Below, piece by piece: positions 1,319 through 28,936 of a DNA stretch of 64,000 nucleotides (position 1 is its first letter; every line of letters begins with the position of its first letter). The translations under genes and the position numbers were made by a program. Source of the stretch: Chlamydiia bacterium. GTDB taxonomy: Bacteria > Chlamydiota > Chlamydiia > Chlamydiales > Rhabdochlamydiaceae. The notes beneath the pieces were generated by a model that made no database searches, was not told the origin of the DNA, and was given only the letters and a program-made list of their open reading frames with translations. The stretch spans positions 160,001-224,000 of the forward strand of contig CAWDOQ010000017.1 in NCBI GenBank assembly GCA_963804085.1. Direction: 5' to 3'.

Positions 1319-2419
1319 ATGCATAAAAAGATACGCGTAGGAGTTGTTTTCGGAGGAAGATCTGCAGAGCATGAAGTCTCTCTTTTGTCTGCCAAGAACA
1401 TTGTAGCTGCTCTCGACAAGAAAAAGTATGAGCCCGTTCTGATTGCGATTACCAAAGAGGGAGAGTGGCACCTTTGCGACGCTAAGAAGTATCTTTTACA
1501 TGCGCACGACCCCAAACGCGTCCGCATTCAAAAACCCCAGAACAATGTCGCCCTAGTTGCAAAAGAGATGAAGCAAGAACTCGTAAGCCTCACCAAAAAA
1601 GAGAAGCATGCTCCCATCGATGTGATCTTTCCCGTTCTTCACGGAACCTATGGAGAGGATGGCGCGATCCAGGGACTTTTAAAGATGGCGGGCGTTCCTT
1701 TTGTAGGAGCAAGCGTCCTCGGTTCCGCAGTAGGCATGGACAAAGATGTGATGAAAAGATTACTCCGAGAGGCAAATATCCCGATCGCGCGCTTCATTAC
1801 TCTCGATACAAAAGCTGCCAAAATGAAGAGTTTTTCTGATGTGACCAAAGAGCTTGGCCTTCCATTCTTTGTAAAACCGGCGAATTTAGGCTCCTCTGTT
1901 GGCGTCTCAAAAGTGAAAAACAAACAGGATTATGTAAAAGCGATCAAGCTTGCATTCCAGTATGACCGCAAGATTCTGATCGAAGAGTTTATCGACGGAA
2001 GAGAGATCGAATGCTCTGTGCTCGGCAATGAGAACCCGATCGCCTCACTTCCCGGCGAGGTGATCGCCAAAGATGAGTTCTACTCCTACGATGCTAAGTA
2101 CATGGATGATAGCGGAACCGTGATGCATATCCCTGCAAAAGTGGACAAGAAAACGATCCAGAGAGTTCAAGCGATTTCCATCCAAGCCTACAAAACACTT
2201 TATTGCGAGGGAACAGCGCGCGTCGATCTTTTCTTAAAGAAGGATGGCACTGTCTACGTCAATGAGATCAACACCATTCCCGGCTTTACCAGCACCAGCG
2301 CTTATCCCAAGCTTTGGGCAGCAAGCGGAGTGTCGATGACAGAAATTGTCGATAAACTCATCCAATTTGCCATAGAGCGCTTCGAGATTGAAAAGAGCTT
2401 GAAGACCACATTCGTATGA
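1319..2419 (+). CDS. ddl: D-alanine--D-alanine ligase
   Basis: [49 protein letters not shown] motifs; start placed at MHKKIRV. Confidence 0.95.
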
Positions 2420-2916
2420 CCAAGAGCGCATACCCGCGAGTCCGCGTAGGCATTGGACAAGATAGCCACCGCTTTCTCTCTCCCGATTCTGCAAAGCCCT
2501 GTACAATTGGAGGCGTCATCTTTGAGGACACCCCGGGTCTTTCCGCCGACTCCGACGGTGATGTCGTCTTTCACGCGATCTGTAACGCGATAAGCTCCCT
2601 CTCCTGCGTGCCTATTCTAGATGGCATCGCAGACGACCTCTTAGAAAAAGATGGGATTACAGACAGCCAAGTCTATGTCGAAAAAGCCCTTCAAACACTC
2701 GGCAAGCAGAAGATCGAACATGTCGCACTCACCATCGAAGGCAAGCGCCCACGCCTCCAAGAAAAAAACCTCGAGATGCGCCAAAAAATAGCCCAAGTCC
2801 TGCGCCTAGACCTCTCCCAAGTCGGCCTGACCGCCACCACCGGCGACGGCCTCACCGACTTCGGCTGCGGCGACGGTCTGCAGTGCTTCTGCACCCTCAC
2901 CACTATAGAGGAGTGA
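2416..2916 (+). CDS. ispF: 2-C-methyl-D-erythritol 2,4-cyclodiphosphate synthase
   Basis: RVGIGQDSHRF, SDGDVVFHAICNA, TATTGDGL motifs; ATGA overlap with the ddl stop. Confidence 0.92.
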   Translation: MTKSAYPRVRVGIGQDSHRFLSPDSAKPCTIGGVIFEDTPGLSADSDGDVVFHAICNAISSLSCVPILDGIADDLLEKDGITDSQVYVEKALQTLGKQKIEHVALTIEGKRPRLQEKNLEMRQKIAQVLRLDLSQVGLTATTGDGLTDFGCGDGLQCFCTLTTIEE

Positions 2917-2923
2917 GAGAGGT

Positions 2924-3253
2924 TCAATGCGGATAATTATGTAGCTTATGTAGTACCCCGTCGAAATACCCTAAAGGTTCATTTCCAGCTCCAGCTGCGA
3001 GCTTTTGTATCTCTTGGTCTGATAGTTCTCGTGTATCCTGAGGAGGCAGGGGAATGACAAAATTGAAGTTATTTGGCTTATCTTCGAAAATATTGATCTT
3101 AATATTGTCTGGAAGTTTATAGCCTACCTCTGCAAGAGCAGCTCGTGGATTTTTTAACAGTTTCGCTTTGAAAGCGGGTTCTTGCCATGCGCGTGCGATA
3201 AGATTATCGCGAAGTTTTTGTTCATCTTTTATATTTACTTGCTTATTTGCCAT
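2924..3253 (-). CDS. NHLP (nitrile hydratase-like leader peptide) family RiPP precursor
   Basis: LIARAWQEPAFKAKLLKNPRAAL...FVIPLPP...ELSDQEIQKLAAG is the NHLP leader pattern, followed by a ~21-aa core; AAGGAG RBS upstream. Confidence 0.88.
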   Translation of the reverse strand: MANKQVNIKDEQKLRDNLIARAWQEPAFKAKLLKNPRAALAEVGYKLPDNIKINIFEDKPNNFNFVIPLPPQDTRELSDQEIQKLAAGAGNEPLGYFDGVLHKLHNYPH

Positions 3254-3320
3254 AGAAGAGTCTCCTTGTTTGTCTTCTTAATATTTTAGAAGTAACAGGT
3301 GCGGTATTTTTTTCACAGTC

Positions 3321-4337
3321 TTATCGTAATGGGGTATCGTAATGGAATACGCATGGATAGGCCTTGATATCAATAGGCATGCCTGGTTCGTAAACTATCT
3401 TGAAGTAGAAGTGCCTGATAAATGGATGTTCCTGTCCGTCAATGAAATATGCAGTGCCTCCGGGCCAACAAAGAAGGGAGCTTGCTTGCTTTTCGGTGAT
3501 CAATTTCTCTTGTACTAAGATTTCTAAAAAAGGAGCCCATTTATAAGCAAGATAAGGAGAGGATGGGTAGCATACTATGCTTATTTTTGCATGTATAGCA
3601 TCAGTAACATCAATTTGAAGATCGATGTCGCCCACAAATGGTCTAATTTTTTTGATCAGTTGAACAAGAGAAGAAACAGGATAGCCATAGGATATCTTCT
3701 GCAGAAAGGGTTCCAATGCGTTGGGAAGATGGGGTGACCGGAAGGCGAGTTTTATCCATTCAGATCTTCTTGCCGTCATGAAGCCTGTCGTTGTAAGGTC
3801 CAGGTCATACATTTGAGCAATATTCAAAATGGTAGCAACTTGTGCTGCTGCTAGTTTATCGCTAAAAAAATCTAGACCCGTATGAACAACATCCCGAGCG
3901 GCTAACTGTAGAAAAAATATGTTGGGAGAGGGAGGCCAATCCTCACAGCTTCCTATATCAAATTCGAGCTCAAGAGCAGTGATGCCGCTTCGCTTGAAGA
4001 ACAATTGTTCAGTTTCAAATTTTTTGATCAGCTCGCAAAATTGTTTCCAAGAAGCATTTTTTTTTAATGGAGCAGAAAGAGAATCATATTGAAAGCAGTC
4101 GGCTAGTAGGCTCTTCTTCTCCTCAGTGGATATATCGAGATGAAAACTTAAATCCATGGAACGTTTGCTCAAAGAACACTCAAAGATTAAATATCTAGAC
4201 CAGATGGATGCAGGGAGTAACTCTACAAACTTGAGTATACGGTCGATGTTTGCCCGAGGAGTTAATTCACTAGGGAGATAAGGGCACATCATTTGGCAAA
4301 ATTCCAAGGGCGCAAATGGAGCAAGTTGTGTCGTCAT
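3321..4337 (-). CDS. Putative RiPP maturase, probable ABBA-fold prenyltransferase
   Basis: IFECSL, LELEFD, PSPNIFF and C-terminal HFYFKIVYEPG..IKAY motifs recall NHLP-associated prenyltransferase domains; directly upstream of the precursor; AAGGAG RBS. Confidence 0.55.
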   Translation of the reverse strand: MTTQLAPFAPLEFCQMMCPYLPSELTPRANIDRILKFVELLPASIWSRYLIFECSLSKRSMDLSFHLDISTEEKKSLLADCFQYDSLSAPLKKNASWKQFCELIKKFETEQLFFKRSGITALELEFDIGSCEDWPPSPNIFFLQLAARDVVHTGLDFFSDKLAAAQVATILNIAQMYDLDLTTTGFMTARRSEWIKLAFRSPHLPNALEPFLQKISYGYPVSSLVQLIKKIRPFVGDIDLQIDVTDAIHAKISIVCYPSSPYLAYKWAPFLEILVQEKLITEKQASSLLCWPGGTAYFIDGQEHPFIRHFYFKIVYEPGMPIDIKAYPCVFHYDTPLR

Positions 4338-4353
4338 GCATCTCCTTATAGAA

Positions 4354-4797
4354 TTAAGTGTTCTTTAGAAAAGCGCGCAGCTTTTCGATGCGGGCGCGAT
4401 TGACTCCGAAATCCTTAGATCCCACGCGCGCACCAGAGCGGACTTGGACTTCGCCCTTCTGTCGGTCTACTTGAAATTCCAAGTCATCTTTAAATCGTAA
4501 AACAGGAGTCGTAACCACAACATGCAAATAGGTAGGGGTTATTTCTACCACTTGTGCGATGTAATTATTCGATAAAAATGCCTGAATCTGGCCTAAAGTT
4601 TTTTCAGATGCAAAAGGGAGGGGCGCAATATAATGTTGCCCATCCTCGTCACTAGAGCAGACGCAGTTAGGACTCTTTGGGCAAGGCTGGAGTTGACCCT
4701 CCATCAGTCCTGTCGTTTTCGGCATCTTCAAATTCTGCCAAAAGAGAAAGCCAACAAAACCAATGAGGACAATCGCTATCCAAACAAACCAGTGCAT
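4354..4797 (-). CDS. DUF1499 domain-containing protein
   Basis: N-terminal TM helix, PCPKSPNCVCS, FKDDLEF, VRSGARVG.KDFGVNRARIE. Confidence 0.88.
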   Translation of the reverse strand: MHWFVWIAIVLIGFVGFLFWQNLKMPKTTGLMEGQLQPCPKSPNCVCSSDEDGQHYIAPLPFASEKTLGQIQAFLSNNYIAQVVEITPTYLHVVVTTPVLRFKDDLEFQVDRQKGEVQVRSGARVGSKDFGVNRARIEKLRAFLKNT

Positions 4798-4862
4798 AAT
4801 CCTCTCCTATCTTGAGCGGACAGTAGCAACAGAACGTATTTCAGACAATAGATCTTGAGGTT

Positions 4863-5303
4863 CTATCTCTTAGAAAAGCAGCAAGCATAATCTAAGGGAT
4901 TATCTTCAATTGTCCGGGAAAAAATGTTGCGGACCAGTGCAACGAGGCAAAATAGAACATTTGCGCTACACATAATAGCGCCCTCGCCCATTAAACTTAC
5001 CCACACATAGTTACCTTTTGGATCACAGATTAGTGTGGCGATGAGAGTAGGTATAAAAAGAATAGCGCGCACAACAGCTTCCACAAGAGAGGCAACGGAC
5101 AGAACAGCATATCCGAGTTCGCCCAGTGCACGCCGTTTTGTGATCTCTAAACAATCCATCCGCTTTTCGCCATTGCGATAAAGCGTAAGGTTTAACGTAG
5201 CAAAAGTCGAACAAGAGATTGCGCATAGCATTGCTTCACAGCATTCGTCAACAAAATCAACCATATCGTTGGACGTATCTTTTTTTGAAACGCGCTTTGG
5301 CAT
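4863..5303 (-). CDS. Hypothetical membrane protein
   Basis: ORF with two hydrophobic segments; start uncertain. Confidence 0.5.
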   Translation of the reverse strand: MPKRVSKKDTSNDMVDFVDECCEAMLCAISCSTFATLNLTLYRNGEKRMDCLEITKRRALGELGYAVLSVASLVEAVVRAILFIPTLIATLICDPKGNYVWVSLMGEGAIMCSANVLFCLVALVRNIFSRTIEDNPLDYACCFSKR

Positions 5304-5519
5304 AAAACTCCTTAGTTTGAGCAAGTTAGTTTAAATAAATGCAGGCTTTAAAGCTACAGCGCAAAGGCGTTTATGCATCCCCCATTTCCAGCCATTCCAT
5401 CTGCTGGTTTATCCCCCTGTTTTAGCCAATCAAACGGCTAAAATTAATATTTTAATTGCATGATATTGATTATCAGTTAGTTAAGGTAAAATGGAAAAAG
5501 CAAGAAAAAGACAAGCCGA

Positions 5520-5576
5520 TTAAGTGCAAAGTCTATCTGTGCGCATTAGAAATTTAAGCCATTGTCTAGAAGACAT
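5520..5576 (-). pseudogene. Possible N-terminal remnant of a HEPN/DUF86 toxin
   Basis: ATG overlapping the MNT gene end gives MSSRQWLKF..., with a stop after 18 codons; position and MSSRxW start resemble DUF86 partners. Confidence 0.4.
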
Positions 5577-5856
5577 GCTTTGCCTCGCGTAAAATTCTCT
5601 TTTTCAGAGCAGGATGTAAGGCGTTTTTTGTGACCAAATCGACTTCGCAATGCAAAAGCTCTTCTAAGTAGTGTTTAACGCCTACAAAAGCAAACAGGCC
5701 TTGCTTTGCATCGAAATCAATCAGGATATCTATGTCGCTTTTGCGCGAGGCTTCGTCTCTTGCAACCGAGCCAAAAAGTGCGAGAGCACGAACACCCAAT
5801 TTTGATAGGTCTTTTTTGTGAGCACTAATAATTTTGCAGGCTTGCTTGAGGAGCAC
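5566..5856 (-). CDS. Minimal nucleotidyltransferase (MNT, MntA-type antitoxin)
   Basis: LFGSVARDEA...SDIDILID...VDLVT motifs in a 96-aa protein. Confidence 0.9.
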   Translation of the reverse strand: MLLKQACKIISAHKKDLSKLGVRALALFGSVARDEASRKSDIDILIDFDAKQGLFAFVGVKHYLEELLHCEVDLVTKNALHPALKKRILREAKHVF

Positions 5857-5904
5857 AGGTTTCTCCTGTTTATTTTTTTATAACATAATGCTCATTAGTT
5901 TTAG

Positions 5905-6086
5905 GCGCATATTCAGGAGGACGGAGCACTGAAATAAGCCTAGATGCATCTGTTACAATGAGACTTCAGAAACACTTGCGAGAGATTCCTCAGATCCACC
6001 CACTTCAGTTCCGGACGAGCAAGAGCTGAAATAGCATGGTAAAGATTGAGACCATCTATGAGGCAGACGACACGCTGACGATCCAT
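5905..6086 (-). pseudogene. NYN domain (PIN-like) protein, truncated
   Basis: MDRQRVVCLIDGLNLYHAI...KWVDL is an NYN N-terminus; continues as YFSA in another frame, then is lost. Confidence 0.7.
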
Positions 6087-6240
6087 AGACCCTCTAAAAA
6101 AACGTGCCACGAGCCGGAGCCCGTGGCTTTCGCATGATATATTAACCATGCGGGATGATGACAGAATCTTAGCGAGCTTCTAATATTTTTGCATACAAGA
6201 AAAATTATAAATATGCAAGCAGATGCGCATTAAGAAGAAG

Positions 6241-7461
6241 TCACGCTTCTTGTGCGTGCTTTTTGGTGAGCATAAACCAGGCGCCGTAGAGGGAGATGGC
6301 GGCGCCGATGAAGAGCATGGGGAGTGCGCCGAACAGGTCGCAGAGGAGGCCGCCGAGTATGGGTGCGACGGCACCGCGCAGGCCTACCATTAGAATGTTG
6401 GTGCTGGAGAAGGGGGCGCTGCTTTGTTCCTGCGCAAAGAGCGTTCCGGAGAGGTTCCAGAGGAGATGGCTTCCTGCTTGTGCTACGCCGTAGATGAAGA
6501 AGGCGACATAGAGGCAGCTTCTATTGAGCGGTGTCAAAAGAAGGGTGAGAGGGAAGAGGGCAAAGCCCATCAGTATCCAGGCGGTGAGGCGTGGGATGGC
6601 GATCTCTTGGATGCCGCGTCTCCACAACAAGGTGGAGAGGATGACGCCTATACCCATCAAGACAAAGCGTGCGGTCGCGATCTCTGCATGCGAAAGGAAG
6701 AGGACATCGGCGTAGAAGACGGCGAGCGCCGGTGCGATCAGCATGAGGCCGAAGCCCCCAATCATAAAGCCCCATTGAAACTGAGCAAAGTCTGGACGTG
6801 AACGCAGAAGAGAGAAGCAATCTTTCCACGGCTGGAGGAGGTAGTTTTTTATGGGGGCGGGTGCAGGAACCGGCTCCTCTTGCTCAAGAGGTGTGATGCG
6901 TCTTTGGATGAAGAGGCTGGTCAGACCGATGAGCGCGCTGACAAAAAAGAGCATCCTCCAACTTGTCCCGCTCCCATCCAAGATATCTGCGATAGAGATG
7001 CCGATCACGACGCTTTCAACAAAACGCAGAAGGTAGTAGAAGGAATAGGCTTTTTCTCGCGGCTGCTTGGGGATGTTGCGTTTTAAAATTTCGATAAGAG
7101 CAGGGATGCCTGCGCTGTTAAACAGCTGGTGGACGCCGGCTGCAAAGAGCAGGTACCAGACGTTATCGATCCAAGGGAGCAGAAGAAAGGGGAGGCGTGC
7201 AAAGAGCCAGGCTCCCATCAAGTTGGAGAGGAGCTTGTGTTTGCGATGGGAGATATAGGAGCTCCAGTAAAACGAGAAGACCGAGAGTACCGGCCTGAGT
7301 GTCACGAAAAGCGAGAGCTGCAGAGTCGATGCTGCGAGATCTTTACGCAGGATAAAGGGCAGAAGGGTATAGAGCGAGGTGAGGGGCTCGCTGGTGAGGT
7401 TCATCCAGAGGAGCGCAAGGCGTGTCTTTTTACAGCCTTTAGCTGTGTTTTCAGTAGACAT
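6241..7461 (-). CDS. MFS transporter
   Basis: About 12 hydrophobic segments; start MSTENT overlaps the upstream gene stop. Confidence 0.8.
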   Translation of the reverse strand: MSTENTAKGCKKTRLALLWMNLTSEPLTSLYTLLPFILRKDLAASTLQLSLFVTLRPVLSVFSFYWSSYISHRKHKLLSNLMGAWLFARLPFLLLPWIDNVWYLLFAAGVHQLFNSAGIPALIEILKRNIPKQPREKAYSFYYLLRFVESVVIGISIADILDGSGTSWRMLFFVSALIGLTSLFIQRRITPLEQEEPVPAPAPIKNYLLQPWKDCFSLLRSRPDFAQFQWGFMIGGFGLMLIAPALAVFYADVLFLSHAEIATARFVLMGIGVILSTLLWRRGIQEIAIPRLTAWILMGFALFPLTLLLTPLNRSCLYVAFFIYGVAQAGSHLLWNLSGTLFAQEQSSAPFSSTNILMVGLRGAVAPILGGLLCDLFGALPMLFIGAAISLYGAWFMLTKKHAQEA

Positions 7462-8620
7462 CGAGTAGGTAGCGTTTTTGCGCGCGCAGGCTCTTAAGAT
7501 AGGCTTTTGCCTCATCTACACTCATTTTGCCTTGCTCGCTGATGATTTTTATTAAGGAGGCTTCTACGTCTTTAGCCATCTGAGAGGCGTCGCCGCACAC
7601 ATAGAGATAGGCTCCCTCTTGGATCCACGCCCAAAGGTCGGAGGCCTGCTCTTCCATCTTGTGCTGCACGTAGATCTTTTCTTGTTGGTCGCGAGAAAAC
7701 GCGAGATCCAGACGTAATTTATTTTGTACAGAGAGCTCATTCCAGAACTCTTCGTAAAAGAAGTCGGTCTTTCTGTTGCGCTCTCCAAAGAAGAGCCAGT
7801 TTTTGCCTTTGTGCTCTAGTACCTGGCGCTCTTGCAAGAAGGCTCTGTAGGGAGCGATGCCCGTGCCCGGACCGATCATAATAATGGACGCGTCGGGATT
7901 ATCCGGCAGCGTGAAGTGATGGCCCGATTGGATATAGAAAGGGACGCTGGTTTTACCGATCTCTGCCAGATGGCATAAGAAGTGGCTCGCGACGCCATAT
8001 CTCTTTTCGCCTTTATGGATAAAGTCGGTGAGGCCAACAGTCAGATGCACCTCTTGAGCGTGCATTTTCTTCGATGAGGCAACTGAGTAAAAACGGGGAA
8101 GCAGCGGGCCGAATTGATTTACAAGCTCTTGCAGAGGGATCTTTGCTTCCGGATAGAGCTGCAAAACATCAAGAGGGTGGTGGCTTGCTAAGTAGTCCAA
8201 TAGAAGAGGTTTATTTTCCGGCTGGAGCAAGAGCTGGAGCGGCTGTTTCTTTTGAGCAATCGGCTCATATGTTTGCACTAGATTTAAGAGTGAGGAGGTA
8301 AGCCGGCTTAAATTGGCCTTATGCAAAAGAAAAGAGCGAAGAGAGAGCGTCTCTTTGGAGCGCGTATCGAGGACAAGCTCCTCGCCGGTTGCTTTCAGTG
8401 CACTTATGTAACGCTCCACAAGAATCGGATCGTTGTGCGCATAGATGCCCAAAGAGTCTCCCACGCGAAAAGATACCTCACCTTCTAACTCCAAAGCCAG
8501 ATGGTAGGTCTTTTTTGTCGACCCCTCTTTGGTCAAGAGCATCCTCTCTTTGATCTTACCTGAGAAGAGGCGTCTTTTACTCTCTTGCACTGTTTTATTT
8601 TCAGAAATAGTCATGGACAA
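7451..8620 (-). CDS. cysJ: Sulfite reductase flavoprotein-like FAD/NADPH oxidoreductase (no flavodoxin domain)
   Basis: PRFYSVASS, GVASHFL, MIGPGTGIAPYR, LFFGER, YVCGDA, RYLLDVY. Confidence 0.85.
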   Translation of the reverse strand: MSMTISENKTVQESKRRLFSGKIKERMLLTKEGSTKKTYHLALELEGEVSFRVGDSLGIYAHNDPILVERYISALKATGEELVLDTRSKETLSLRSFLLHKANLSRLTSSLLNLVQTYEPIAQKKQPLQLLLQPENKPLLLDYLASHHPLDVLQLYPEAKIPLQELVNQFGPLLPRFYSVASSKKMHAQEVHLTVGLTDFIHKGEKRYGVASHFLCHLAEIGKTSVPFYIQSGHHFTLPDNPDASIIMIGPGTGIAPYRAFLQERQVLEHKGKNWLFFGERNRKTDFFYEEFWNELSVQNKLRLDLAFSRDQQEKIYVQHKMEEQASDLWAWIQEGAYLYVCGDASQMAKDVEASLIKIISEQGKMSVDEAKAYLKSLRAQKRYLLDVY

Positions 8621-18276: not shown

Positions 18277-19779
18277 ATGAACGCCTTAGAAGAATTATCG
18301 GATCTGAAAACGGAAAATCAAAAACTACGCGAGACAGTCGATGCTCTTAAAGAGCAACTGGAATGGTTGCGTCGTCAGATTTTTGGCAGGCGCTCGGAAA
18401 AAGATCTTCGTAATCTCGATGAATCTCAACTGAGTTTTAATGGATTTGCTTTAGAAAAATCCATTCCAGAAAAGCAAGTTATCAAAAGCCATGAACGTGT
18501 AAAGCAATGTCGTAACGGTCAAGATAAAATCACCCTTCCTCCTGACTTGCCCGTGGAACGCACTGTCATCGACCTACCAGAAGAGCAAAAGAAGTGCCAA
18601 GAGACAGGGACACCTCTTGTTAAGATCGGAGAGGAAGTGTCTCGTAAATTAGCCCATAAGCCTGGCTCTTATTTTATCAAAGAAATCGTCCGACCCAAAT
18701 ATGCTCATCCTCAAAGAAGCGAAGAGGGAATCAAGATAGCCGATCTTCCATCTTCTCTTTTATCACGCTGTCAAGTAGATGATAGTTTTTTAGCTGAGCT
18801 TTTAGTTAAGAAATATGCAGACCACAATCCTCTTAATCGCATCTCAGAAATCATGTCTAGAGATGGGATTTTTATCAGCCGCCAATTGTTGTCCCAATGG
18901 GTTATAAAATGTGGCATTGCGTTAAAATCCTTATGCGATGAGATGACTCGCCTGATACTGAGCAGTGAAAATGTCTTCATCGATGAAGTGCCCATCAAAA
19001 TGCTCGATCCTGGGATGGGACAAACCAAAATCACTTACATGTGGGTCCTAAGTGGAGGCAAAGAAAGCAATCCCTCTTGCAGAGTTTATAACTTTAGAAC
19101 TAATAGACAACACCATCAAGCTGCAGAGCTTTTGAAGGGTTATCGTGGTGTAGTGCACTCTGACAAATATGGAGCCTATGAAAAGCTGGCTGCAACAAAG
19201 CAATTTACTTGGTGTCCATGTTGGGTCCATATTCGCAGAAAATTTATAGAAGCCGAGCATGGCGATAAAGACCTTCGCGACACAGTGTTGCATAAGATAC
19301 AAAAACTTTTTCAAATAGAAGAAATCGCATGGACAAAGTCGCCTGAAGAGCGACTACAAATAAGACAAGAACTTGAAGTTCCCATTATTGATGAACTCAC
19401 AGAACTAATCAAAACTCGGCTGCTATCAGGAACAGTATTGCCTAAATCCAATTTTAAAGAAGCATTAGGGTACTACTGCAGCTTGATCTCATACTTAAAA
19501 AATTACACCCTTCACCCTTGGGCCCGGTTGGACAATAATGTCGCAGAGCGAGCCGTGAGACCGCTTGTATTGGGTCGTAAGAACTGGCTCTTTCTAGGAA
19601 GTAATGATGGTGGGGAAGCAGCAGGGGTCATTTTATCTCTGGTGCAGACCTGCCGGGCATTGCATATAAATCCTCGCGTGTATCTCGAAGACATAATGCG
19701 TCGTCTCATGGACCACAATGCGCAAAAGCTGGAAGAGCTTTTGCCTCATAACTGGATCAAGAACATACCCAATAACTGA
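18277..19779 (+). CDS. tnpC: IS66 DDE transposase TnpC
   Basis: Leucine-zipper N-terminus FGRRSEK, IDE, HSDKYGAY, CWVHIRRKF, DNNVAERAVRP, GRKNWLF. Confidence 0.95.
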   Translation: MNALEELSDLKTENQKLRETVDALKEQLEWLRRQIFGRRSEKDLRNLDESQLSFNGFALEKSIPEKQVIKSHERVKQCRNGQDKITLPPDLPVERTVIDLPEEQKKCQETGTPLVKIGEEVSRKLAHKPGSYFIKEIVRPKYAHPQRSEEGIKIADLPSSLLSRCQVDDSFLAELLVKKYADHNPLNRISEIMSRDGIFISRQLLSQWVIKCGIALKSLCDEMTRLILSSENVFIDEVPIKMLDPGMGQTKITYMWVLSGGKESNPSCRVYNFRTNRQHHQAAELLKGYRGVVHSDKYGAYEKLAATKQFTWCPCWVHIRRKFIEAEHGDKDLRDTVLHKIQKLFQIEEIAWTKSPEERLQIRQELEVPIIDELTELIKTRLLSGTVLPKSNFKEALGYYCSLISYLKNYTLHPWARLDNNVAERAVRPLVLGRKNWLFLGSNDGGEAAGVILSLVQTCRALHINPRVYLEDIMRRLMDHNAQKLEELLPHNWIKNIPNN

Positions 19780-19858: not shown

Positions 19859-22800
19859 TTATTCTTGATGAGTGAGAAGCTCGGTCTCTTTGCGCTCTTC
19901 GCGCTTATGGAAGTATTCCAGAAGCGGAGCAGCAATGAAGAGAGACGAAAGGGTACCAAATACCACCCCAACGCCCATCACAAGAGCAAAGCCGAACAGG
20001 GTGCTACCACCCAATGCGACTAAGGGGATAAGGACAAGCAGCGTAATGCCGGATGTCATCATCGTGCGGCTCAAGGTGACGTTTAGCGCGTGGTTGATTA
20101 CCTCTTTGAAGGAGGCTTTGTGGATCAGGCGCAGGTCTTCGCGGATTCTGTCAAAGATGATGATCGTGTCGTTCAGCGAGTAGCCGACGATTGTCATCAA
20201 TGCTGCAACAGTATTTAGATCGATTTGTATCGGCACTCCAAACGCATGCAAGGCCGCAAGAACTGCTATCGTGAAGATGACGTCGTGCGCCAAGCAAATG
20301 GTGGCAGAGATCGCATATTTAAACTCAAAGCGTGCAGTGATGTAGAGCAGGATGCACAAAAGAGCAATCATAAGACCGATGATTGCGCTATTTCGCATCG
20401 AATCGGACATCTGGCCGCTCACCTCTGCCCAGTTGGTGTTGAGTGTCTCAAGAGAAGCGGGGGTCGGACTTAAGCCAGCTTTTGAGAGTGCTTGTACAAT
20501 CCAGACGATCCGAGGATTGTTTTCGTATAGATAGCCCAACTCTTTTGTTTCGGTCTCTAGCGGCATGCCAAAGAAGGGTCTACCCGATTCTTGCATACTG
20601 CGGCTTAGAAAGAGGCGGATATTGTTGGCGGGAGTGAGCTCTCGAATCTGAAAATCTTGAGCGGTCGCGCCTGCTTGGACAAGGGCAGTTTCTACAGCTT
20701 TGCGGTAGTCGCTTCCCTGTTTTGGCGTAAGCTCAAAGCTAACAGCATATCCTCCGGTAAAATCCATACCCAAAATGGTGTGGCGTTGAGAGAGGAAGAA
20801 GTAGCCGCCCACGAGGATGACAAGTGTCGAGAAGATGAGCGTGGGTTTAGAAAATTTCAAGAAATTAAACTGGCTCGATTTGATCCAATTGGACATCTTG
20901 AGTGCTTTGTGCTCAGGATTTTGTACCCATCCGGCAAAGAAGTAGCGCGTTAAAAAGAGTGCGGTGAACATCGAGGAGACGATACCGATGATCAGCGTGA
21001 CAGCAAAGCCTTTGATTGGTCCCGAATCAAAATGGAGAAGAATCAGCGCTGCGATGATTGTGGTGGTGTTAGAGTCGATAATCGCAGAAAAAGCCTTGCG
21101 GTAGCCTGCGTGGACAGCCTGTGCGATGCGTCCTGAGAGTTGAAACTCTTCGCGAATCCTTTCAAAGACGAGGACGTTAGCATCGACTGCCATCGCGACA
21201 GTCAGAATGAGTCCCGCTATCGATGCGAGCGTGAGAGTTGCTTGTAAGTTTTGCAGTGTCGCCCACATGATCAGCAGGTTGAAAATAACGGCAACAGATG
21301 CGACAAGGCCGCCAAAACGGTAGTAGGCGATCATGACGCCGATGACAAGAGCTAGCGCTATCGCCATTGCCCAAATGCCTAAGCTTCTTTCGTGTGCGCC
21401 GAGCTCCGGGCTTACATTCTTCTCAGAGAGAATATGAGGTGTAAAGCTCAAGGATCCCGCTTTTAAATCGGCTTCTAGCTGATTGACTTCGCGCTGCGTG
21501 AAGCTGCCGGTGATCATCGCGCTATCTTTTAATGCAGAATCTAGCGTCGGAGAGCTGATGATCGAGCCGTTTAAAATAACGGCCATGCGCCAGCCTCTTC
21601 CCTTTGAAAAATTCTCTTTGGGAGTGCCCGTGATCTTTTCCTTGGCAAATTGGGAGGTCCATGCGTAAAGCTCGTCTCGAGCTTGGCCGCTTTTTACGCT
21701 AAAGCCGAGGAAGTTGCCCTTGGATGGATCGTAGGAGGCGTGGACATCATTTAAGTTGGATCCTTCGAGTGCAAAGTTGCGGAAAACAATCATGAGGGGA
21801 TGGGTCTGTCCTTGCCAATCCGTAAAATCATCACCGCGGATAATCGCAAGTCGCGAAAAGGAGTCGTTGAAAGCGCTGCTGCTACTTGGATCGAGAGGGG
21901 ACGCGAGTTTGAGACCATTGTCGTGCAGGGCTTTAGCAGCGTCTGAGCGTGGTTTTACCACTTCAGGGTCGAAGGAGTCGCCATGGATATGTTTCCACGC
22001 GATCATCTGGATCTGTTCGGCATCTTTTCGGTTGGTGACGACCGCTTCATTCCAGACATCTTGCAAAAAGCGGTTCACGTTTTCGGCAAGCGCCGGGTTG
22101 TTAAGAGAGAACTGTTCGTTGACGATGTGGAAGTACATCGAAGAGGCTTTTACAAGCTCTGCAGCAGAAAGTCCTTGAGAGCCGGGGAAATCAAGAGTGA
22201 TCGTGTTGCCCTCTTGACGGATGCTCACTTCTGAGACGCCCATCTTATTGACGCGCTTGTAGAGTTCGTTGACACCTTGCTTGAGATCTTCTTCTGCAGT
22301 TACAACTCGGTTGTTTCTGTCACGCAGCTCGATTTGGACGGTTTTACCACCCGAAAGGTCCAAGCCCCAGTGTAGGATCTTGCGCTCGTCGCCACGGAAA
22401 TATTTAACAAAGCTTAAACAGAAGTTGCTCCAGAGAGGGCTCTTAGTCGGCTTGGGCACGTCGTAGCGCGAAACGCCTTTGATATCGAGCTCGGCTGCGT
22501 TGTAGTCGTCGCGCCATTTGAGGAGATCTTCGTGAATGCGTGTGTCGATCTTGTTCTCTGTAAGAAGGCGCTGCTCGACATCGGTAAATTCTAGAACCGC
22601 AAAGCGTTTGGTCCCGTGGACAGTGAAATCTTCGCGCGTCGCTTTGAGAATCGTCTGAAAGTAGTCCTCTTTTTCAAAGATAAAGTCGCTAGCATATTCA
22701 GGGCCAAGGGCATAAGAGGAGCCTGCATAGCCAAAAAAGCCATTCTTTTGTAGCAGATCACGCAGAGCGTAAAAGTCGAACAAAAATTGCTTAGCTTCTT

Positions 22801-24364
22801 CCGATTCGGGGTTTTGGCGCACGCGTTCTAAAATTTTATCCAGCCCTTTGGCGATGACGTAGAGAGAGTTCATCCGGAAGCCCTTAGGAGGCATCTTGTT
22901 GTACTGAGAGGGGGCGTAGATAACAAGCCCGAGCTTCTGTTGATCTAGGGGGAGAGACTGATAGGTATTATAGTCCAAAACAGGGAACGCCTTGCGGCTT
23001 AAATCCTGGTGTTTAGGGAGCCAGTTAGCGCTAAGAGCGGTTTGAACCTGAGTCGCTTCTGCTTGTGCCACGCTTCCCAAACGCATCGCTAAAAAGCTCT
23101 TGCTATTTGGCAGCTGGTTGAGCGCAATTTCAAACTGTCCTTCTGTGGGAGAGATCGTCTCACGGGTCTGACGAGAAGTGGTCGCGATCTGATTAAAGAT
23201 AAATTGATCGACCTGGTCGGAGAGATAGCTTTTCTCTTTGTTTTTCTCGAGAGTGGTCTTGAGTGCGAGGATATCGGCGTAAGGGCGCAGATAGATCTTT
23301 TCGTTTGCCCAATCGATCACGATCTGTTCGATAAACGGGTTGCGATTCTGAAGAGAGATTACTTGCAGATTGCTCGCCTGCTTAAGAGCGCTCTCTTGCA
23401 GAACGGCGCCAAAGGAGTTGTAGTTCCAAGGAGTCGCTCCTGCAGACATTGCATGCGTCTGTCTTTTCACGATGGCTTCTGCGGAAGTAAGGGTCTCCTC
23501 AAAGGAGGAGAGCTGCTCTAAACGCAGCTTTTTAACGCCGTCTGCTGTCTGTCCTTGAAGCGCGACCTTCTCCAATCGGAGCTGGTCCTTCATCTGTTGC
23601 ATGGCGAGTAAAAGATCTTGGATGCTCTTGGCGTGGTTGCCCGTCTCGCTTTGTGTGAAGCTTGCGAAATAACGTGCTGCAATCGGGCCCTTCTCTCCAA
23701 ATGTTTTAACAAATGAAAGAATGTTTTGCGAAAGCTGGAGGATAAGCTCTTGTACTTGAGGATCGCGGACACTACCTGCTGCACCGCGGACATACTCAGC
23801 ATTTTCGCTTGCGCCACCCAAAGAGATTCCCACTTCCAGAGCGCGGTCATTAACAAGTGCGCGATAGAGGTCGGTAATTTTTCCTTGAGCATCTGTTTTA
23901 GTTGAAAATTGGAAGAACTGGCTAGCTTGTTTTGCATCGAAATGTAAGGGAATGCGTCTTTGGACTGTCACACTCTTGCTTGAAGAATCATCATTGTAGA
24001 GACCTAGCTGCGCGGGAGCAAAAGAGATCAGAGCGCCGGCTCTTGTAAGATGCTGGCGGAAAAGACCCGCTTCTGTGCTGTTTTTAAAGGTGAGCGTAAC
24101 GAATTCGGGCTGCTTCTCATCGAACGCGATCGTCTGGGGTTTTAGCCGCAAAAGAGAGCAGTAGGAGCGAAGCCAGGAGAGAGAGTCGTTTTCTAAGCTG
24201 TTGACGCGCTGGCCGATAGCGACGGAGATCTCATTCGCCTTCTTCTCATCGACCGATTTGTGCAGCGGTTTTGCATAATAAAAAAGGGTAGGAAGGATGT
24301 TGTAAATCGTTAAAACTACAACGGCGCAAATCAAAAAGAACTGCCAACGCTTTTGTTTTTCCAT
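19859..24364 (-). CDS. secDF: Fused SecD-SecF translocase subunit (chlamydial long form)
   Basis: WGLDLSGG, MAVDANVLVFERIREE, GMDFTGG, GYSLNDTIIIFDRIRE; 1501 aa. Confidence 0.96.
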   Translation of the reverse strand: MEKQKRWQFFLICAVVVLTIYNILPTLFYYAKPLHKSVDEKKANEISVAIGQRVNSLENDSLSWLRSYCSLLRLKPQTIAFDEKQPEFVTLTFKNSTEAGLFRQHLTRAGALISFAPAQLGLYNDDSSSKSVTVQRRIPLHFDAKQASQFFQFSTKTDAQGKITDLYRALVNDRALEVGISLGGASENAEYVRGAAGSVRDPQVQELILQLSQNILSFVKTFGEKGPIAARYFASFTQSETGNHAKSIQDLLLAMQQMKDQLRLEKVALQGQTADGVKKLRLEQLSSFEETLTSAEAIVKRQTHAMSAGATPWNYNSFGAVLQESALKQASNLQVISLQNRNPFIEQIVIDWANEKIYLRPYADILALKTTLEKNKEKSYLSDQVDQFIFNQIATTSRQTRETISPTEGQFEIALNQLPNSKSFLAMRLGSVAQAEATQVQTALSANWLPKHQDLSRKAFPVLDYNTYQSLPLDQQKLGLVIYAPSQYNKMPPKGFRMNSLYVIAKGLDKILERVRQNPESEEAKQFLFDFYALRDLLQKNGFFGYAGSSYALGPEYASDFIFEKEDYFQTILKATREDFTVHGTKRFAVLEFTDVEQRLLTENKIDTRIHEDLLKWRDDYNAAELDIKGVSRYDVPKPTKSPLWSNFCLSFVKYFRGDERKILHWGLDLSGGKTVQIELRDRNNRVVTAEEDLKQGVNELYKRVNKMGVSEVSIRQEGNTITLDFPGSQGLSAAELVKASSMYFHIVNEQFSLNNPALAENVNRFLQDVWNEAVVTNRKDAEQIQMIAWKHIHGDSFDPEVVKPRSDAAKALHDNGLKLASPLDPSSSSAFNDSFSRLAIIRGDDFTDWQGQTHPLMIVFRNFALEGSNLNDVHASYDPSKGNFLGFSVKSGQARDELYAWTSQFAKEKITGTPKENFSKGRGWRMAVILNGSIISSPTLDSALKDSAMITGSFTQREVNQLEADLKAGSLSFTPHILSEKNVSPELGAHERSLGIWAMAIALALVIGVMIAYYRFGGLVASVAVIFNLLIMWATLQNLQATLTLASIAGLILTVAMAVDANVLVFERIREEFQLSGRIAQAVHAGYRKAFSAIIDSNTTTIIAALILLHFDSGPIKGFAVTLIIGIVSSMFTALFLTRYFFAGWVQNPEHKALKMSNWIKSSQFNFLKFSKPTLIFSTLVILVGGYFFLSQRHTILGMDFTGGYAVSFELTPKQGSDYRKAVETALVQAGATAQDFQIRELTPANNIRLFLSRSMQESGRPFFGMPLETETKELGYLYENNPRIVWIVQALSKAGLSPTPASLETLNTNWAEVSGQMSDSMRNSAIIGLMIALLCILLYITARFEFKYAISATICLAHDVIFTIAVLAALHAFGVPIQIDLNTVAALMTIVGYSLNDTIIIFDRIREDLRLIHKASFKEVINHALNVTLSRTMMTSGITLLVLIPLVALGGSTLFGFALVMGVGVVFGTLSSLFIAAPLLEYFHKREERKETELLTHQE

Positions 24365-26736: not shown

Positions 26737-27611
26737 TGAAAACAAGATTTAGAAGGCTTGCAGACCTCAATCGTAGGCTGGTCGTCTCCATCATCACTAT
26801 TTTTTTTGTCTTCTGGCTAATCGCCTTCTCTTCACAGCCCTGGGTGAGCGTTATTCTCGTGCTTACTGTCGCGGCCCTTGCCGGAGTGGGTGTGTGGGAG
26901 TATGCCCAGCTCGCTATTGCTAAAGATCTCAAACCGGCAGTGCGACTGATGATTCTTCTCGGGTTTTTCGAGGTGATCGCCTTTTTTATTGCGCACAAGT
27001 TCTCTAGCTTCTCGCTTCTACCTCTTCTGATTCTGCTCTTAGGCGTGCTGCTCTTCTTTCTTTTTCATTTTAGAGACAAGACAAATGCTTTAATCCATAT
27101 TGCTGTGGAGTCTTTTGGCGTCGCCTACGTCTCGATCCCACTCTGCTTCATGCTGGCTCTTCTCTACCCGGTGACCGGCCACGTTCTTCCACAAGATGGC
27201 AGATGGTGGCTCGGCTACCTGATCATCGTGACCAAGATCACCGATGTGAGCGCTTATTTTGTCGGCAAACTCTGGGGACGCCATCGCCTGGCTCCCGTTT
27301 TAAGCCCAAAGAAGACAGTAGAAGGAGCCGTTGCTGGCTTCTTATGCGCAGCTATCACGAGCGTCCTCTTATCCTATTTTGGCAAACACTTTTCTCATGG
27401 TGTCTTTCAGCTCGGACTTTTCGATGCGATTTGGCTTGGAATGACGCTCGGCGTGCTCGGTCAACTCGGCGATCTTGCCGAATCACTCCTCAAACGCGAT
27501 GCGTTTGTAAAAGATAGCAACAGACTGCCCGGTATTGGAGGAGTGCTCGACATGTTAGACTCCCTTCTCTTCACAGGTCCTATGATCTACTTATTTTTAA
27601 AAATGCAATGA
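26736..27611 (+). CDS. cdsA: Phosphatidate cytidylyltransferase
   Basis: SPKKTVEG, GDLAESLLKRDAFVKDS..LPG.GGVLD. Confidence 0.95.
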   Translation: MKTRFRRLADLNRRLVVSIITIFFVFWLIAFSSQPWVSVILVLTVAALAGVGVWEYAQLAIAKDLKPAVRLMILLGFFEVIAFFIAHKFSSFSLLPLLILLLGVLLFFLFHFRDKTNALIHIAVESFGVAYVSIPLCFMLALLYPVTGHVLPQDGRWWLGYLIIVTKITDVSAYFVGKLWGRHRLAPVLSPKKTVEGAVAGFLCAAITSVLLSYFGKHFSHGVFQLGLFDAIWLGMTLGVLGQLGDLAESLLKRDAFVKDSNRLPGIGGVLDMLDSLLFTGPMIYLFLKMQ

Positions 27612-28936
27612 TTGTCACCATTGATGGCCCTGCGGGCACAGGAAAAACCACAGTTGCAAGACGAGTAGCAGAGGCCCTCTCTTTTTCCTATTTCGACACG
27701 GGGGCAATGTACCGCGCCTTCACCTGGCTTGTTCTAGAAAATAAAATCGAGCTCACCAATCTGAAAGCCATCGAACAGCTGCTCGACTCTTTTTCCTTTA
27801 ACATAAAAAAGGTCAATCAAGAGAAGCGCTATTTTGTAAATGATATCGATGTAACAGAGCCAATCCGCTCTCAAGAGGTGACGGGTGCAGTTTCTGCAGT
27901 AGCTGCACTTCTTCCTGTAAGACAAGCTCTTTGGAAGATCCAGCGCGCTTTTGCAGAAAACAGCGATGCTGTGTTCGAAGGACGCGATCTGGGCACAGTC
28001 GTCTTCCCTAAAGCCGAGATCAAGATCTTTTTAACCGCACGTCCAGAAGTGAGAGCCGAGCGCAGACTTAAAGAGATTATCGCAAAAACTCCTGCAAACG
28101 CAGCTCGCCTCAATCAAGATCTGATGCTGCAAGATATCATGCGAAGAGATGAGATCGACTCCACACGCGAACACGCTCCTTTGAAATGTCCTGAAGATGC
28201 TCTTACTATCGACACTTCAGATCTTACGCTCGAGCAGGTAGTCCAACGCGTCTTAGAGTACAAAAAAAGCAAATACCCCGAGAAGTATGAGAAGGGTAAC
28301 CTTCTCTATCGCGCAATTCTCACAGGCGCCAAACTCTACTTCAAAATCTTCTACCGCCACAAAGTCTACGGAAGAGAGCACTTCTGCCCGGGCGGAGCGA
28401 TCATCGCAGGCAACCACGCCTCCTTCTTCGACCCACCCATTGCTGCGATCTCCTCCCCGCAAGAGGTTCACTTCTTAGCGCGCGAGACACTCTTTAAAAA
28501 TCCTCTCTTTGGCGGGCTGATCCGCGCTTTAAACTCCCATCCTGTGAGCGGCGACCCCAGCGACATCGGTGTCTTTAGACTGATCACCTCGCTCCTAAAA
28601 GAAGGAAAAAAAGTCATTCTCTTCCCTGAAGGTCAACGCGCAAGCCAAGATGCGCTCGGAGTCATCAAGCCCGGCATCGGCATGCTCTTGTCACGCAGTG
28701 GCGCTTTTGTCCTTCCGATCTATATCCATGGAACGTTTCAAGTCTGGAACCGTTTTATGCGCCTGCCCAAACTCTTTGGCAAGACCGCAAGCGTCTTCGG
28801 CTCGCCCATTCGCTGGGAGGAGTTTGCACACCTAGAGAAAAAAGAGGCGCAGCGCGCCTTTGCAGAAAGACTCACAGATAGCCTCACCCGCCTGCGCAAC
28901 TGGTACGAAGAGGGTGCCCACGGCACACCTCCCTAA
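27608..28936 (+). CDS. cmk-plsC: Fused cytidylate kinase / 1-acyl-sn-glycerol-3-phosphate acyltransferase
   Basis: N-terminal IDGPAGTGKTT, DTGAMYR, EGRDLGT; C-terminal NHASFFD, FPEG; single open frame. Confidence 0.9.
   Translation: MIVTIDGPAGTGKTTVARRVAEALSFSYFDTGAMYRAFTWLVLENKIELTNLKAIEQLLDSFSFNIKKVNQEKRYFVNDIDVTEPIRSQEVTGAVSAVAALLPVRQALWKIQRAFAENSDAVFEGRDLGTVVFPKAEIKIFLTARPEVRAERRLKEIIAKTPANAARLNQDLMLQDIMRRDEIDSTREHAPLKCPEDALTIDTSDLTLEQVVQRVLEYKKSKYPEKYEKGNLLYRAILTGAKLYFKIFYRHKVYGREHFCPGGAIIAGNHASFFDPPIAAISSPQEVHFLARETLFKNPLFGGLIRALNSHPVSGDPSDIGVFRLITSLLKEGKKVILFPEGQRASQDALGVIKPGIGMLLSRSGAFVLPIYIHGTFQVWNRFMRLPKLFGKTASVFGSPIRWEEFAHLEKKEAQRAFAERLTDSLTRLRNWYEEGAHGTPP

Follow-up and report, generated by a model that had tools for sequence, protein, structure and literature searches.

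Does a chlamydia-like bacterium encode a ribosomal peptide that receives a prenyl group from an enzyme guided by the leader of that same peptide? The question is raised by two adjacent genes in a 64,000-nucleotide stretch of DNA, referred to here as the window, from a Chlamydiia bacterium of the Rhabdochlamydiaceae (assembly GCA_963804085.1, contig CAWDOQ010000017.1, positions 160,001 to 224,000). One gene encodes a 109-residue precursor with a nitrile hydratase-like leader peptide (NHLP), a leader class of RiPPs, peptides made by ribosomes and modified after translation, and the other a 338-residue protein that a preliminary description of the sequence had compared with aromatic prenyltransferases of the ABBA-barrel, or PT-barrel, type.

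The results favor a two-gene RiPP cassette in which a predicted leader-dependent prenyltransferase is paired with a precursor carrying a linear, Cys-free core, probably modified at Tyr or His; this reading is given a probability of about 60%, and the bacterium probably makes a lipid-tagged ribosomal peptide. The elements of the locus, both genes being found where the preliminary description had placed them and each with an AAGGAG ribosome-binding site, are the following.

2924..3253, minus strand: NHLP-leader RiPP precursor gene, 109 amino acids plus stop (open reading frame and TIGR03793 match; recovered again in a search of its own genome)
2990..3253, minus strand: leader region, residues 1-88, ending in ELSDQEIQKLAAG and carrying an L(X)4I motif as well as a putative Gly-type cleavage site (TIGR03793 match; aligned with 11 other precursors)
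2927..2989, minus strand: predicted core peptide, residues 89-109, AGNEPLGYFDGVLHKLHNYPH (sequence past the end of the leader model)
3262..3267, minus strand: AAGGAG ribosome-binding site of the precursor gene, 8-nucleotide spacer (read from the sequence)
3321..4337, minus strand: 338-residue ABBA/PT-barrel protein, predicted peptide prenyltransferase (open reading frame, AlphaFold2 model, Foldseek, VIA-align and a family of 400 representatives)
4342..4347, minus strand: AAGGAG ribosome-binding site of the enzyme gene, 4-nucleotide spacer, within the 16-nucleotide gap after a DUF1499 gene (read from the sequence)

The leader-bearing precursor and its barrel-fold neighbor

The precursor matches the leader_NHLP model TIGR03793 with an E value of 4.6e-21 and a score of 74.4 bits, above the cut-off of 50.9, and at 74.6 bits in the genome-wide search, model positions 3-77 of 77 falling on residues 12-88 so that the model ends at ...KLAAG; Pfam NHase_alpha matches it at 44.1 bits. 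As in TIGR03793 members, whose leaders end in a Gly-Gly-type motif before a short variable core, the leader end is followed here by 21 variable residues. Cleavage after G88 or G90 would release a core of 19-21 residues. The leader motif reads L77-SDQE-I82, and among the other eight prenyltransferase-linked precursors of the phylum six carry L(X)4L, one M(X)4L and one L(X)4T. The core contains neither Cys nor Trp, two Tyr and three His, which makes Tyr96, Tyr107 and His102, His105 and His109 the candidate acceptors.

The fold of the 338-residue protein was predicted with AlphaFold2 from an alignment of 85 sequences. The model has a mean predicted local distance difference test score (pLDDT) of 93.4 and a predicted template modeling score (pTM) of 0.92, and is built of repeated helix-helix-strand-strand units. 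All the matches listed by Foldseek against the PDB are ABBA aromatic prenyltransferases, at probability 1.00, including EpzP (E 1.5e-7), AmbP1/AmbP3, NphB/Orf2, FamD1, FgaPT2 and CloQ. VIA-align gave a Z score of 18.7 to MpnD (300 residues aligned, root-mean-square deviation 3.8) and of 17.2 to CymD and FunA, the 50 rows listed being without exception aromatic prenyltransferases with 7-12% identity. The nearest neighbors in the ESM Atlas are unnamed clusters from Myxococcota and Pseudomonadota (score 0.96), followed by clusters with Trp_DMAT (0.92), DUF5838 (0.91) and PTase_Orf2 (0.90). Predicted structure thus confirms the resemblance proposed in the preliminary description: the protein is modeled as an ABBA/PT-barrel.

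The motifs that had suggested this resemblance, FECSL, LEFD, PSPNIFF and FKIVY...KAY, turned out to be the conserved blocks of the family, containing E53, E125/D127, P138/N139, K313 and K325/Y327. The window enzyme retains E53, D127, K313, K325 and Y327, which are strictly invariant in the family, as well as D62, R190 and D243, which are nearly so. In the model, E53, D127, R190, K313, K325 and Y327 are conserved polar residues on barrel strands. A largely basic set, R190, K/R196, K/R251, R308, K313, K325 and Y327, is conserved on predicted strands and may face the lumen of the barrel. Known ABBA enzymes bind the diphosphate through a set of basic and Tyr residues on the barrel strands.

The enzyme had been called an orphan. 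It is indeed unannotated, since neither Pfam nor NCBIfam gives it a match above threshold, and none of the 85 aligned family members matches any model of either collection, yet it is far from alone: a HMMER (phmmer) scan over 1.84 billion representative proteins returned 400 relatives at E<=1e-3, of which 83 pass <=1e-10 and 8 pass <=1e-30, and every relative with a source name is a "hypothetical protein". A word-index search found the enzyme itself and a single relative at 84% identity. Scans of metagenomes with the single protein and with a family alignment yielded no relatives, and the 42 matches to an earlier alignment-derived pattern included none.

Within the phylum the family is rare and closely tied to precursors. 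It occurs in 3 of 41 genomes when the source genome, which has three copies, is taken with 40 relatives, and in 5 of the phylum's 400 scored genomes (a further one was not scorable), amounting to nine gene copies. As the proposed co-occurrence implied, all nine directly adjoin a small gene above the TIGR03793 cut-off. The six paired precursors of other genomes score 59.7-63.4 bits and the three of the source genome 74.6, 74.5 and 66.2. The copies have different chromosomal neighborhoods, so the pairing does not go back to one block passed down by inheritance. All nine cores are listed below by genome (G000 is the source genome) and contig.

Window locus (G000 C17): AGNEPLGYFDGVLHKLHNYPH
G000 C19: SGHCLPTTVSWGGGCI
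G000 C12: VGGGVTKGGYSVDPGCNWC
G014: VGTQKYIWDK
G013 C6: AKQEALKGYHDCSSSCRGTS
G013 C3: GSKTDYTYGCYGC
G129a: (G)DDYFPH
G129b: GEGPSDYISDKYIHYGK
G117: NADTECCCS

A Tyr or Trp stands 4-11 residues past the Gly site in eight of these nine cores.

More distant loci were collected by a pattern scan in which each species was represented by one genome, and were confirmed by tblastn. There are 38 named ones: 23 from cyanobacteria, seven from Acidobacteriota, four from Chloroflexota, three from Bacteroidota and one from Rubrobacter. NHLP-like precursors were found within 4 kb at 10 of the 38 with a custom profile (six were re-checked and pass TIGR03793) and Nif11-type precursors at three, one of which overlaps the NHLP set, so that 12 loci have a long-leader precursor of either kind. 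The neighbor scan took one flanking gene of more than 200 residues per side where present (69 proteins of 148 large open reading frames called) and detected LanM in four loci (five if a LanM fragment is counted), YcaO, radical SAM proteins, C39-ABC/NHLP exporters, a WelO5-like halogenase and FkbM methyltransferases. Many cores at these loci end in Trp or Tyr. In some relatives the barrel is fused to another enzyme: to SQHop_cyclase_C, a squalene-hopene-cyclase-like domain (P0146), to 2-oxoglutarate (2OG)-Fe(II) oxygenases (P0096, P0113), to a sulfotransferase (P0041) and to an FAD_binding_4 oxidase (P0010 and the copy on contig C19 of the source genome). The fusion to a cyclase domain supports isoprenoid chemistry independently of the fold.

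In a midpoint-rooted FastTree phylogeny of 181 sequences, whose rooting and support were not assessed, all nine chlamydia-like copies fall in one of two major branches, interleaved with unnamed metagenome sequences. The other branch holds all the named loci that were placed (36 of 38), the cyanobacterial and acidobacterial ones among them.

A physical association of the enzyme with the precursor was addressed by complex prediction. The interface score ipSAE (interaction prediction score from aligned errors) was 0.54 for the pair and 0.00 for three controls, a result rated as weak support. Among 157 solved complexes 116 reach the mark for this score, as do 2 of 215 mismatched pairs; 18 of the 157 solved complexes and both passing mismatches reach it at 0.60 or less. 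At least 54% of contacts are shared between runs, and the pLDDT of the partner is at least 67.

These data bear on the alternative that the enzyme prenylates a small aromatic metabolite and stands beside a precursor gene by coincidence. Most solved ABBA enzymes do act on small molecules. Coincidence is nevertheless very improbable given an NHLP neighbor at nine of nine copies, in five genomes and at least five different chromosomal contexts, together with relatives lying inside RiPP clusters of distant phyla and a complex prediction that exceeds its controls, if weakly.

Two further observations concern the surroundings of family members. In 14 loci (L016-L021, L023, L027, L035, L036, L042, L049, L052, L053), 12 of them cyanobacterial, one from Anaerolineae (L023) and one from Cytophagales (L052), a protein of about 600 residues without a Pfam family is encoded directly downstream of the prenyltransferase gene and looks like a conserved, unannotated partner. 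At one G013 locus (L003, G013:C6:157142-161077) the pair is followed by an enzyme of the MbnB/TglH/ChrH family (DUF692, 333 bits) and a possible partner protein, and a radical-SAM-like open reading frame with a CxxxCxxC motif lies upstream; these neighbors suggest a richer modification set.

Evidence weighed against the proposed leader-guided prenylation

Several results count against the proposed cassette and are brought together in this section. The prenyltransferase families PTase_Orf2 (PF11468), Trp_DMAT (PF11991) and DUF5838 (PF19156) gave no match to the window enzyme at E<=1, nor to any of the 85 family members at E<=0.01, and a profile search of PDB sequences returned chance matches alone (E 0.33). 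The prenyltransferase assignment rests on the predicted fold. Also counting against the cassette, a precursor lies within 4 kb at only 12 of the 38 distant loci.

Other difficulties come from the supply and export functions of the genome. A search for IspH (LYTB, PF02401) found no match in the assembly, whose completeness is 91%, and its absence may be a gap; ispF, an undecaprenyl diphosphate (UPP) synthase and two polyprenyl synthases are present, and from this gene content a supply of prenyl donor is plausible. The only C39-peptidase ATP-binding cassette (ABC) transporter of the genome is split over two frames, of 300 and at least 348 residues, that overlap by about 30 nucleotides, which may reflect a frameshift or a sequencing error. 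This transporter and an HlyD-like gene lie near an unpaired NHLP gene that stands beside a TolC-like gene on contig C22.

The genome holds seven genes above the TIGR03793 cut-off, three of them paired with a barrel enzyme, compared with none in 14 control genomes. The four unpaired ones, the exporter region and a paralogous cluster are located as follows.

C2:337526, C19:110054, C19:198175 and C22:74268: unpaired NHLP precursor genes
G000:C22:68981-72364 (L054) and G000:C22:72768-75980 (L060): exporter region
7637-14499 of L081 (G000:C19:68000-84500): paralogous LanM cluster

The paralogous cluster on contig C19, which counts in favor of the cassette, has a LanM in two overlapping open reading frames, a DUF4135 half of 460 residues and a LanC half of 502 residues, which match TIGR03897 at model positions 3-428 and 448-931, both above cut-off; this is the single LanC-like match of the genome. 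It further encodes a FAD_binding_3 protein (441 residues), a 740-residue fusion of the prenyltransferase barrel with the FAD_binding_4 oxidase, and a precursor of 105 residues whose core, SGHCLPTTVSWGGGCI, contains Ser/Thr, two Cys and a Trp. A search of the source genome for YcaO gave no match. The preliminary description had spoken of a minimal two-gene locus and of a window free of LanM, YcaO and radical SAM genes. None of these families was found among window open reading frames of at least 110 residues (48 open reading frames were scanned at E<=1e-15, and the four others of this size, along with the 109-residue precursor, at E<=1), and the term minimal holds for the locus itself but not for the genome, with its LanM-containing cluster and C39-ABC exporter on other contigs.

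The window copy of the enzyme also departs from its family. On strand beta-8 it has G253S, where 168 of 181 family sequences have Gly, and E255V, where 154 of 181 have Glu, and the relative that is 84% identical to it (P0002) retains both G253 and E255. H311Y (His in 160 of 181) and W123E are further changes, the four positions being conserved in 142-168 of 181 sequences. With these changes, the enzyme could be altered or inactive. Inactive ABBA homologs do exist, PatF being an example. The gene might be decaying or its product non-catalytic, a PatF-like homolog that at most binds the leader, so that the peptide would remain unmodified or would not be made; the location in a variable, compositionally mixed island (described below) and the splitting of the exporter and LanM genes elsewhere in the genome into two frames each fit such a history. 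Against it, the frame is intact over 338 codons and has its own ribosome-binding site, the invariant E53, D127, K313, K325 and Y327 and the nearly invariant R190 are retained, position 255 is also Asn, Ser, Asp or Arg in other family members still paired with a precursor, and the confidence of the model equals that of a conserved enzyme. Decay or loss of catalysis is considered unlikely.

A last difficulty is posed by the G117 core, NADTECCCS, which has no aromatic residue and is paired with the most divergent enzyme; the acceptor is therefore not uniform in the phylum. With one relative offering Cys, Ser and Thr alone, and a window core lacking Trp, the acceptor of MppC (PMC12715784), the enzyme might modify its peptide in some other way, by transfer from another alkyl- or geranyl-type donor, at His, Ser/Thr or the termini, or by a transfer coupled with cyclization. 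Fusions to FAD oxidase, 2OG oxygenase, sulfotransferase and cyclase domains suggest a varied chemistry, and the family is a sequence group of its own outside the Pfam prenyltransferase models. A different chemistry is all the same quite unlikely, as all the structural matches listed use prenyl diphosphates and a Tyr or Trp occurs at a similar distance from the leader in eight of nine cores.

A possible mechanism and its relation to known systems

For the favored cassette, a prenyltransferase that reads the leader and modifies Tyr or His, the following sequence of events is envisaged. The leader (residues 1-88) would be folded and nitrile-hydratase-like, and the soluble 338-residue enzyme would dock on it, as is the case for MppC, while the core is threaded into one end of the barrel. 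A prenyl group of C5 to C15 would then be moved from a diphosphate held by the conserved Arg, Lys and Tyr residues, probably with Mg2+, to an electron-rich side chain, of which the first Tyr (Tyr96) seems likeliest, Tyr107 or a His being the other candidates. The leader would subsequently be cut at the AAG/AG site, and the lipopeptide could be exported through the C39-peptidase ABC transporter, HlyD and outer-membrane-factor genes encoded on another contig. Catalysis, donor, acceptor, cleavage and export are all inferred, while the data themselves show the leader family, the predicted fold, the linkage of the genes, the context of the family and the position in an island.

The closest precedent is the MppC/MppE/MppM system of Moorena producens PAL, where MppC, an ABBA enzyme, prenylates lanthipeptides in a leader-dependent manner (Wakeel, McShan and Agarwal, JACS 2025, PMC12715784). 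MppC geranylates C5 of Trp in the LanM-cyclized core, solely with the Nif11-like leader attached (PMC12715784). As in that system, a soluble barrel enzyme is encoded beside a precursor with a long, folded leader of the Nif11/NHLP class, a likeness of predicted fold and gene layout; the L(X)4I of the window leader may be a counterpart of the L(X)4L motif in the disordered part of the MppC-type leader. Members of the window enzyme's family adjoin LanM too, in Acidobacteriota among others, and the C19 cluster reproduces the published MppM/MppE/MppC layout with a core that contains Trp. The window locus differs in having no LanM, a core without Cys or Trp and an NHLP rather than a Nif11 leader; given such a core and the missing LanM, the substrate has to be linear and Trp is ruled out as acceptor. 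In addition, the chlamydia-like copies belong to a different major tree branch from the cyanobacterial and acidobacterial loci.

The layout itself is closer to that of the Paenibacillus alvei pair PalX/PalQ (Miyata, Ito and Fujinami, Adv Sci 2023, PMC10853753). This too is a minimal cluster with an NHLP-type precursor, a short linear core and one adjacent prenylating enzyme, and the PalX leader enhances the PalQ reaction (PMC10853753). PalQ differs from the window enzyme in having an isoprene-synthase (ComQ-like) fold, a C-terminal Trp as acceptor and an accompanying histidine kinase (PMC10853753). The window locus thus joins the enzyme type of MppC to the minimal, linear-core layout of PalX/PalQ, with a core that lacks Trp.

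Cyanobactin prenyltransferases of the PagF type are likewise ABBA barrels; in ribosomal peptides they prenylate side chains of Tyr, Trp, His, Ser/Thr or Arg, and the core is thought to plug one end of the barrel (PMC12715784). Unlike the leader-dependent enzyme proposed here, they act after removal of the leader and are promiscuous (PMC12715784). In further contrast to cyanobactin loci, neither a cyanobactin protease nor a macrocyclase was seen at the window locus in general Pfam scans; PatA/PatG-type protease genes did not turn up in these scans of the window, and no search aimed at them was made. The small-molecule ABBA and dimethylallyltryptophan synthase (DMATS) enzymes MpnD (4yla), CymD (6os5), FunA (9iia), NphB (1zb6) and EpzP (4ee7) resemble the window enzyme with Z scores of 15-18.7 over about 260-310 residues; they differ from it in sequence (7-12% identity), act on free indoles, phenazines and naphthalenes, and have no link to a precursor gene.

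The preliminary description had known of no chlamydial RiPP of this type. Literature searches on NHLP/ABBA prenyltransferases and on RiPP clusters of Chlamydiae found no description of a chlamydial prenylated RiPP, and a survey of chlamydial genomes gives, in its available part, "RiPP-like" clusters alone (PMC9666466). The kind of system is nonetheless known from MppC (PMC12715784) and PalQ (PMC10853753). The locus adds a variant to recently described chemistry and is not a new kind of system.

To our knowledge, peptide prenylation by an ABBA enzyme that reads a folded leader was shown only in 2024-2025, on lanthipeptides. No simpler form of this leader-dependent chemistry would be expected than a stand-alone precursor and enzyme whose core is linear and offers Tyr/His. 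If the proposed cassette is real, it would provide a compact peptide-lipidating tool, extend the acceptor range of the leader-dependent branch and give a chlamydia-like lineage a concrete natural product that can be tested for. A curated model for the enzyme family, which has 400 representatives and no database name, would aid annotation in many phyla.

A wider and more tentative proposal, put at somewhat less than even odds, is that environmental chlamydia-like bacteria have a distinct branch of leader-dependent ABBA enzymes which, with no macrocyclase, prenylate short linear NHLP-led cores on Tyr or His rather than Trp, the products being exported by C39-ABC, HlyD and TolC components. If this were true, an obligate intracellular lineage would possess a family of secreted, membrane-seeking peptides (the genome has seven NHLP genes and three prenyltransferases), and such peptides might act on host or inclusion membranes, or on competitors.

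Genome setting and neighboring genes

The spacing between ispF and a FAD/NAD reductase gene varies among related genomes: in five of the same family it measures 4-58 nucleotides in three, 1.4 kb in one and 7.3 kb in one, as against 4.5 kb in the window. This places the RiPP pair within a variable island, which also contains the DUF1499 gene, an open reading frame of 153 residues, a small nucleotidyltransferase-like open reading frame and a major facilitator superfamily (MFS) transporter.

2917..7450, no strand assigned: variable 4.5-kb island from ispF to the FAD/NAD reductase gene (comparison with related genomes)
4354-4797: DUF1499 gene
7451-8620: FAD/NAD reductase gene

The pair had been seen as an AT-richer insert convergent on ispF, and the composition agrees: the GC content is 0.38-0.435 in 400-nucleotide windows starting at 3001-4001 (span 3001-4400) versus 0.49-0.535 in those starting at 2201-2801 (span 2201-3200). 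The ispF gene (TIGR00151, 137 bits) is convergent and ends at 2916, 7 nucleotides from the precursor stop. The DUF1499 gene was found in none of 15 same-family genomes. A scan for promoters and terminators remained at chance level (four promoter-like sites versus 5.3 expected, six terminator-like sites versus 3.2). Among sequencing runs, no RNA run containing this DNA was found, and the best-matching DNA run shared 0.23 of the sampled words.

A contaminant contig was considered, the contamination estimate of the assembly being 4.97%, and was ruled out because the flanking genes keep their synteny with genomes of the same family, the amino-acid identities being 58-61% for ddl, 65-78% for ispF, 48-60% for the reductase and 75-81% for gltX. 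The ATP/ADP-translocase family TLC has five matches in the source genome and none in the 14 control genomes, Pfam Chlam_OMP6 and Chlam_PMP had no match in the source genome, and a tail-specific protease and a Mip-like FKBP are among the window proteins. The translocase matches, this protease, the FKBP and a SecD/SecF fusion (listed below) are in keeping with an environmental chlamydia, whereas the two Chlam families were of no help on taxonomy.

In the same island, positions 5566-6149 hold a 96-residue open reading frame with a nucleotidyltransferase-like motif and an adjacent one of 69 residues, which may form a toxin-antitoxin-type pair. Elsewhere in the window, a protein with a TOTE conflict-system archaeo-eukaryotic primase domain (325 bits) adjoins a ResIII helicase-like gene at 31642-34501, and the two look like a defense-type module. 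An IS66 transposase is encoded at 18277-19779, a cytidylate kinase fused to an acyltransferase (442 residues) at 27608-28936, and a SecD/SecF fusion of 1501 residues at 19859-24364.

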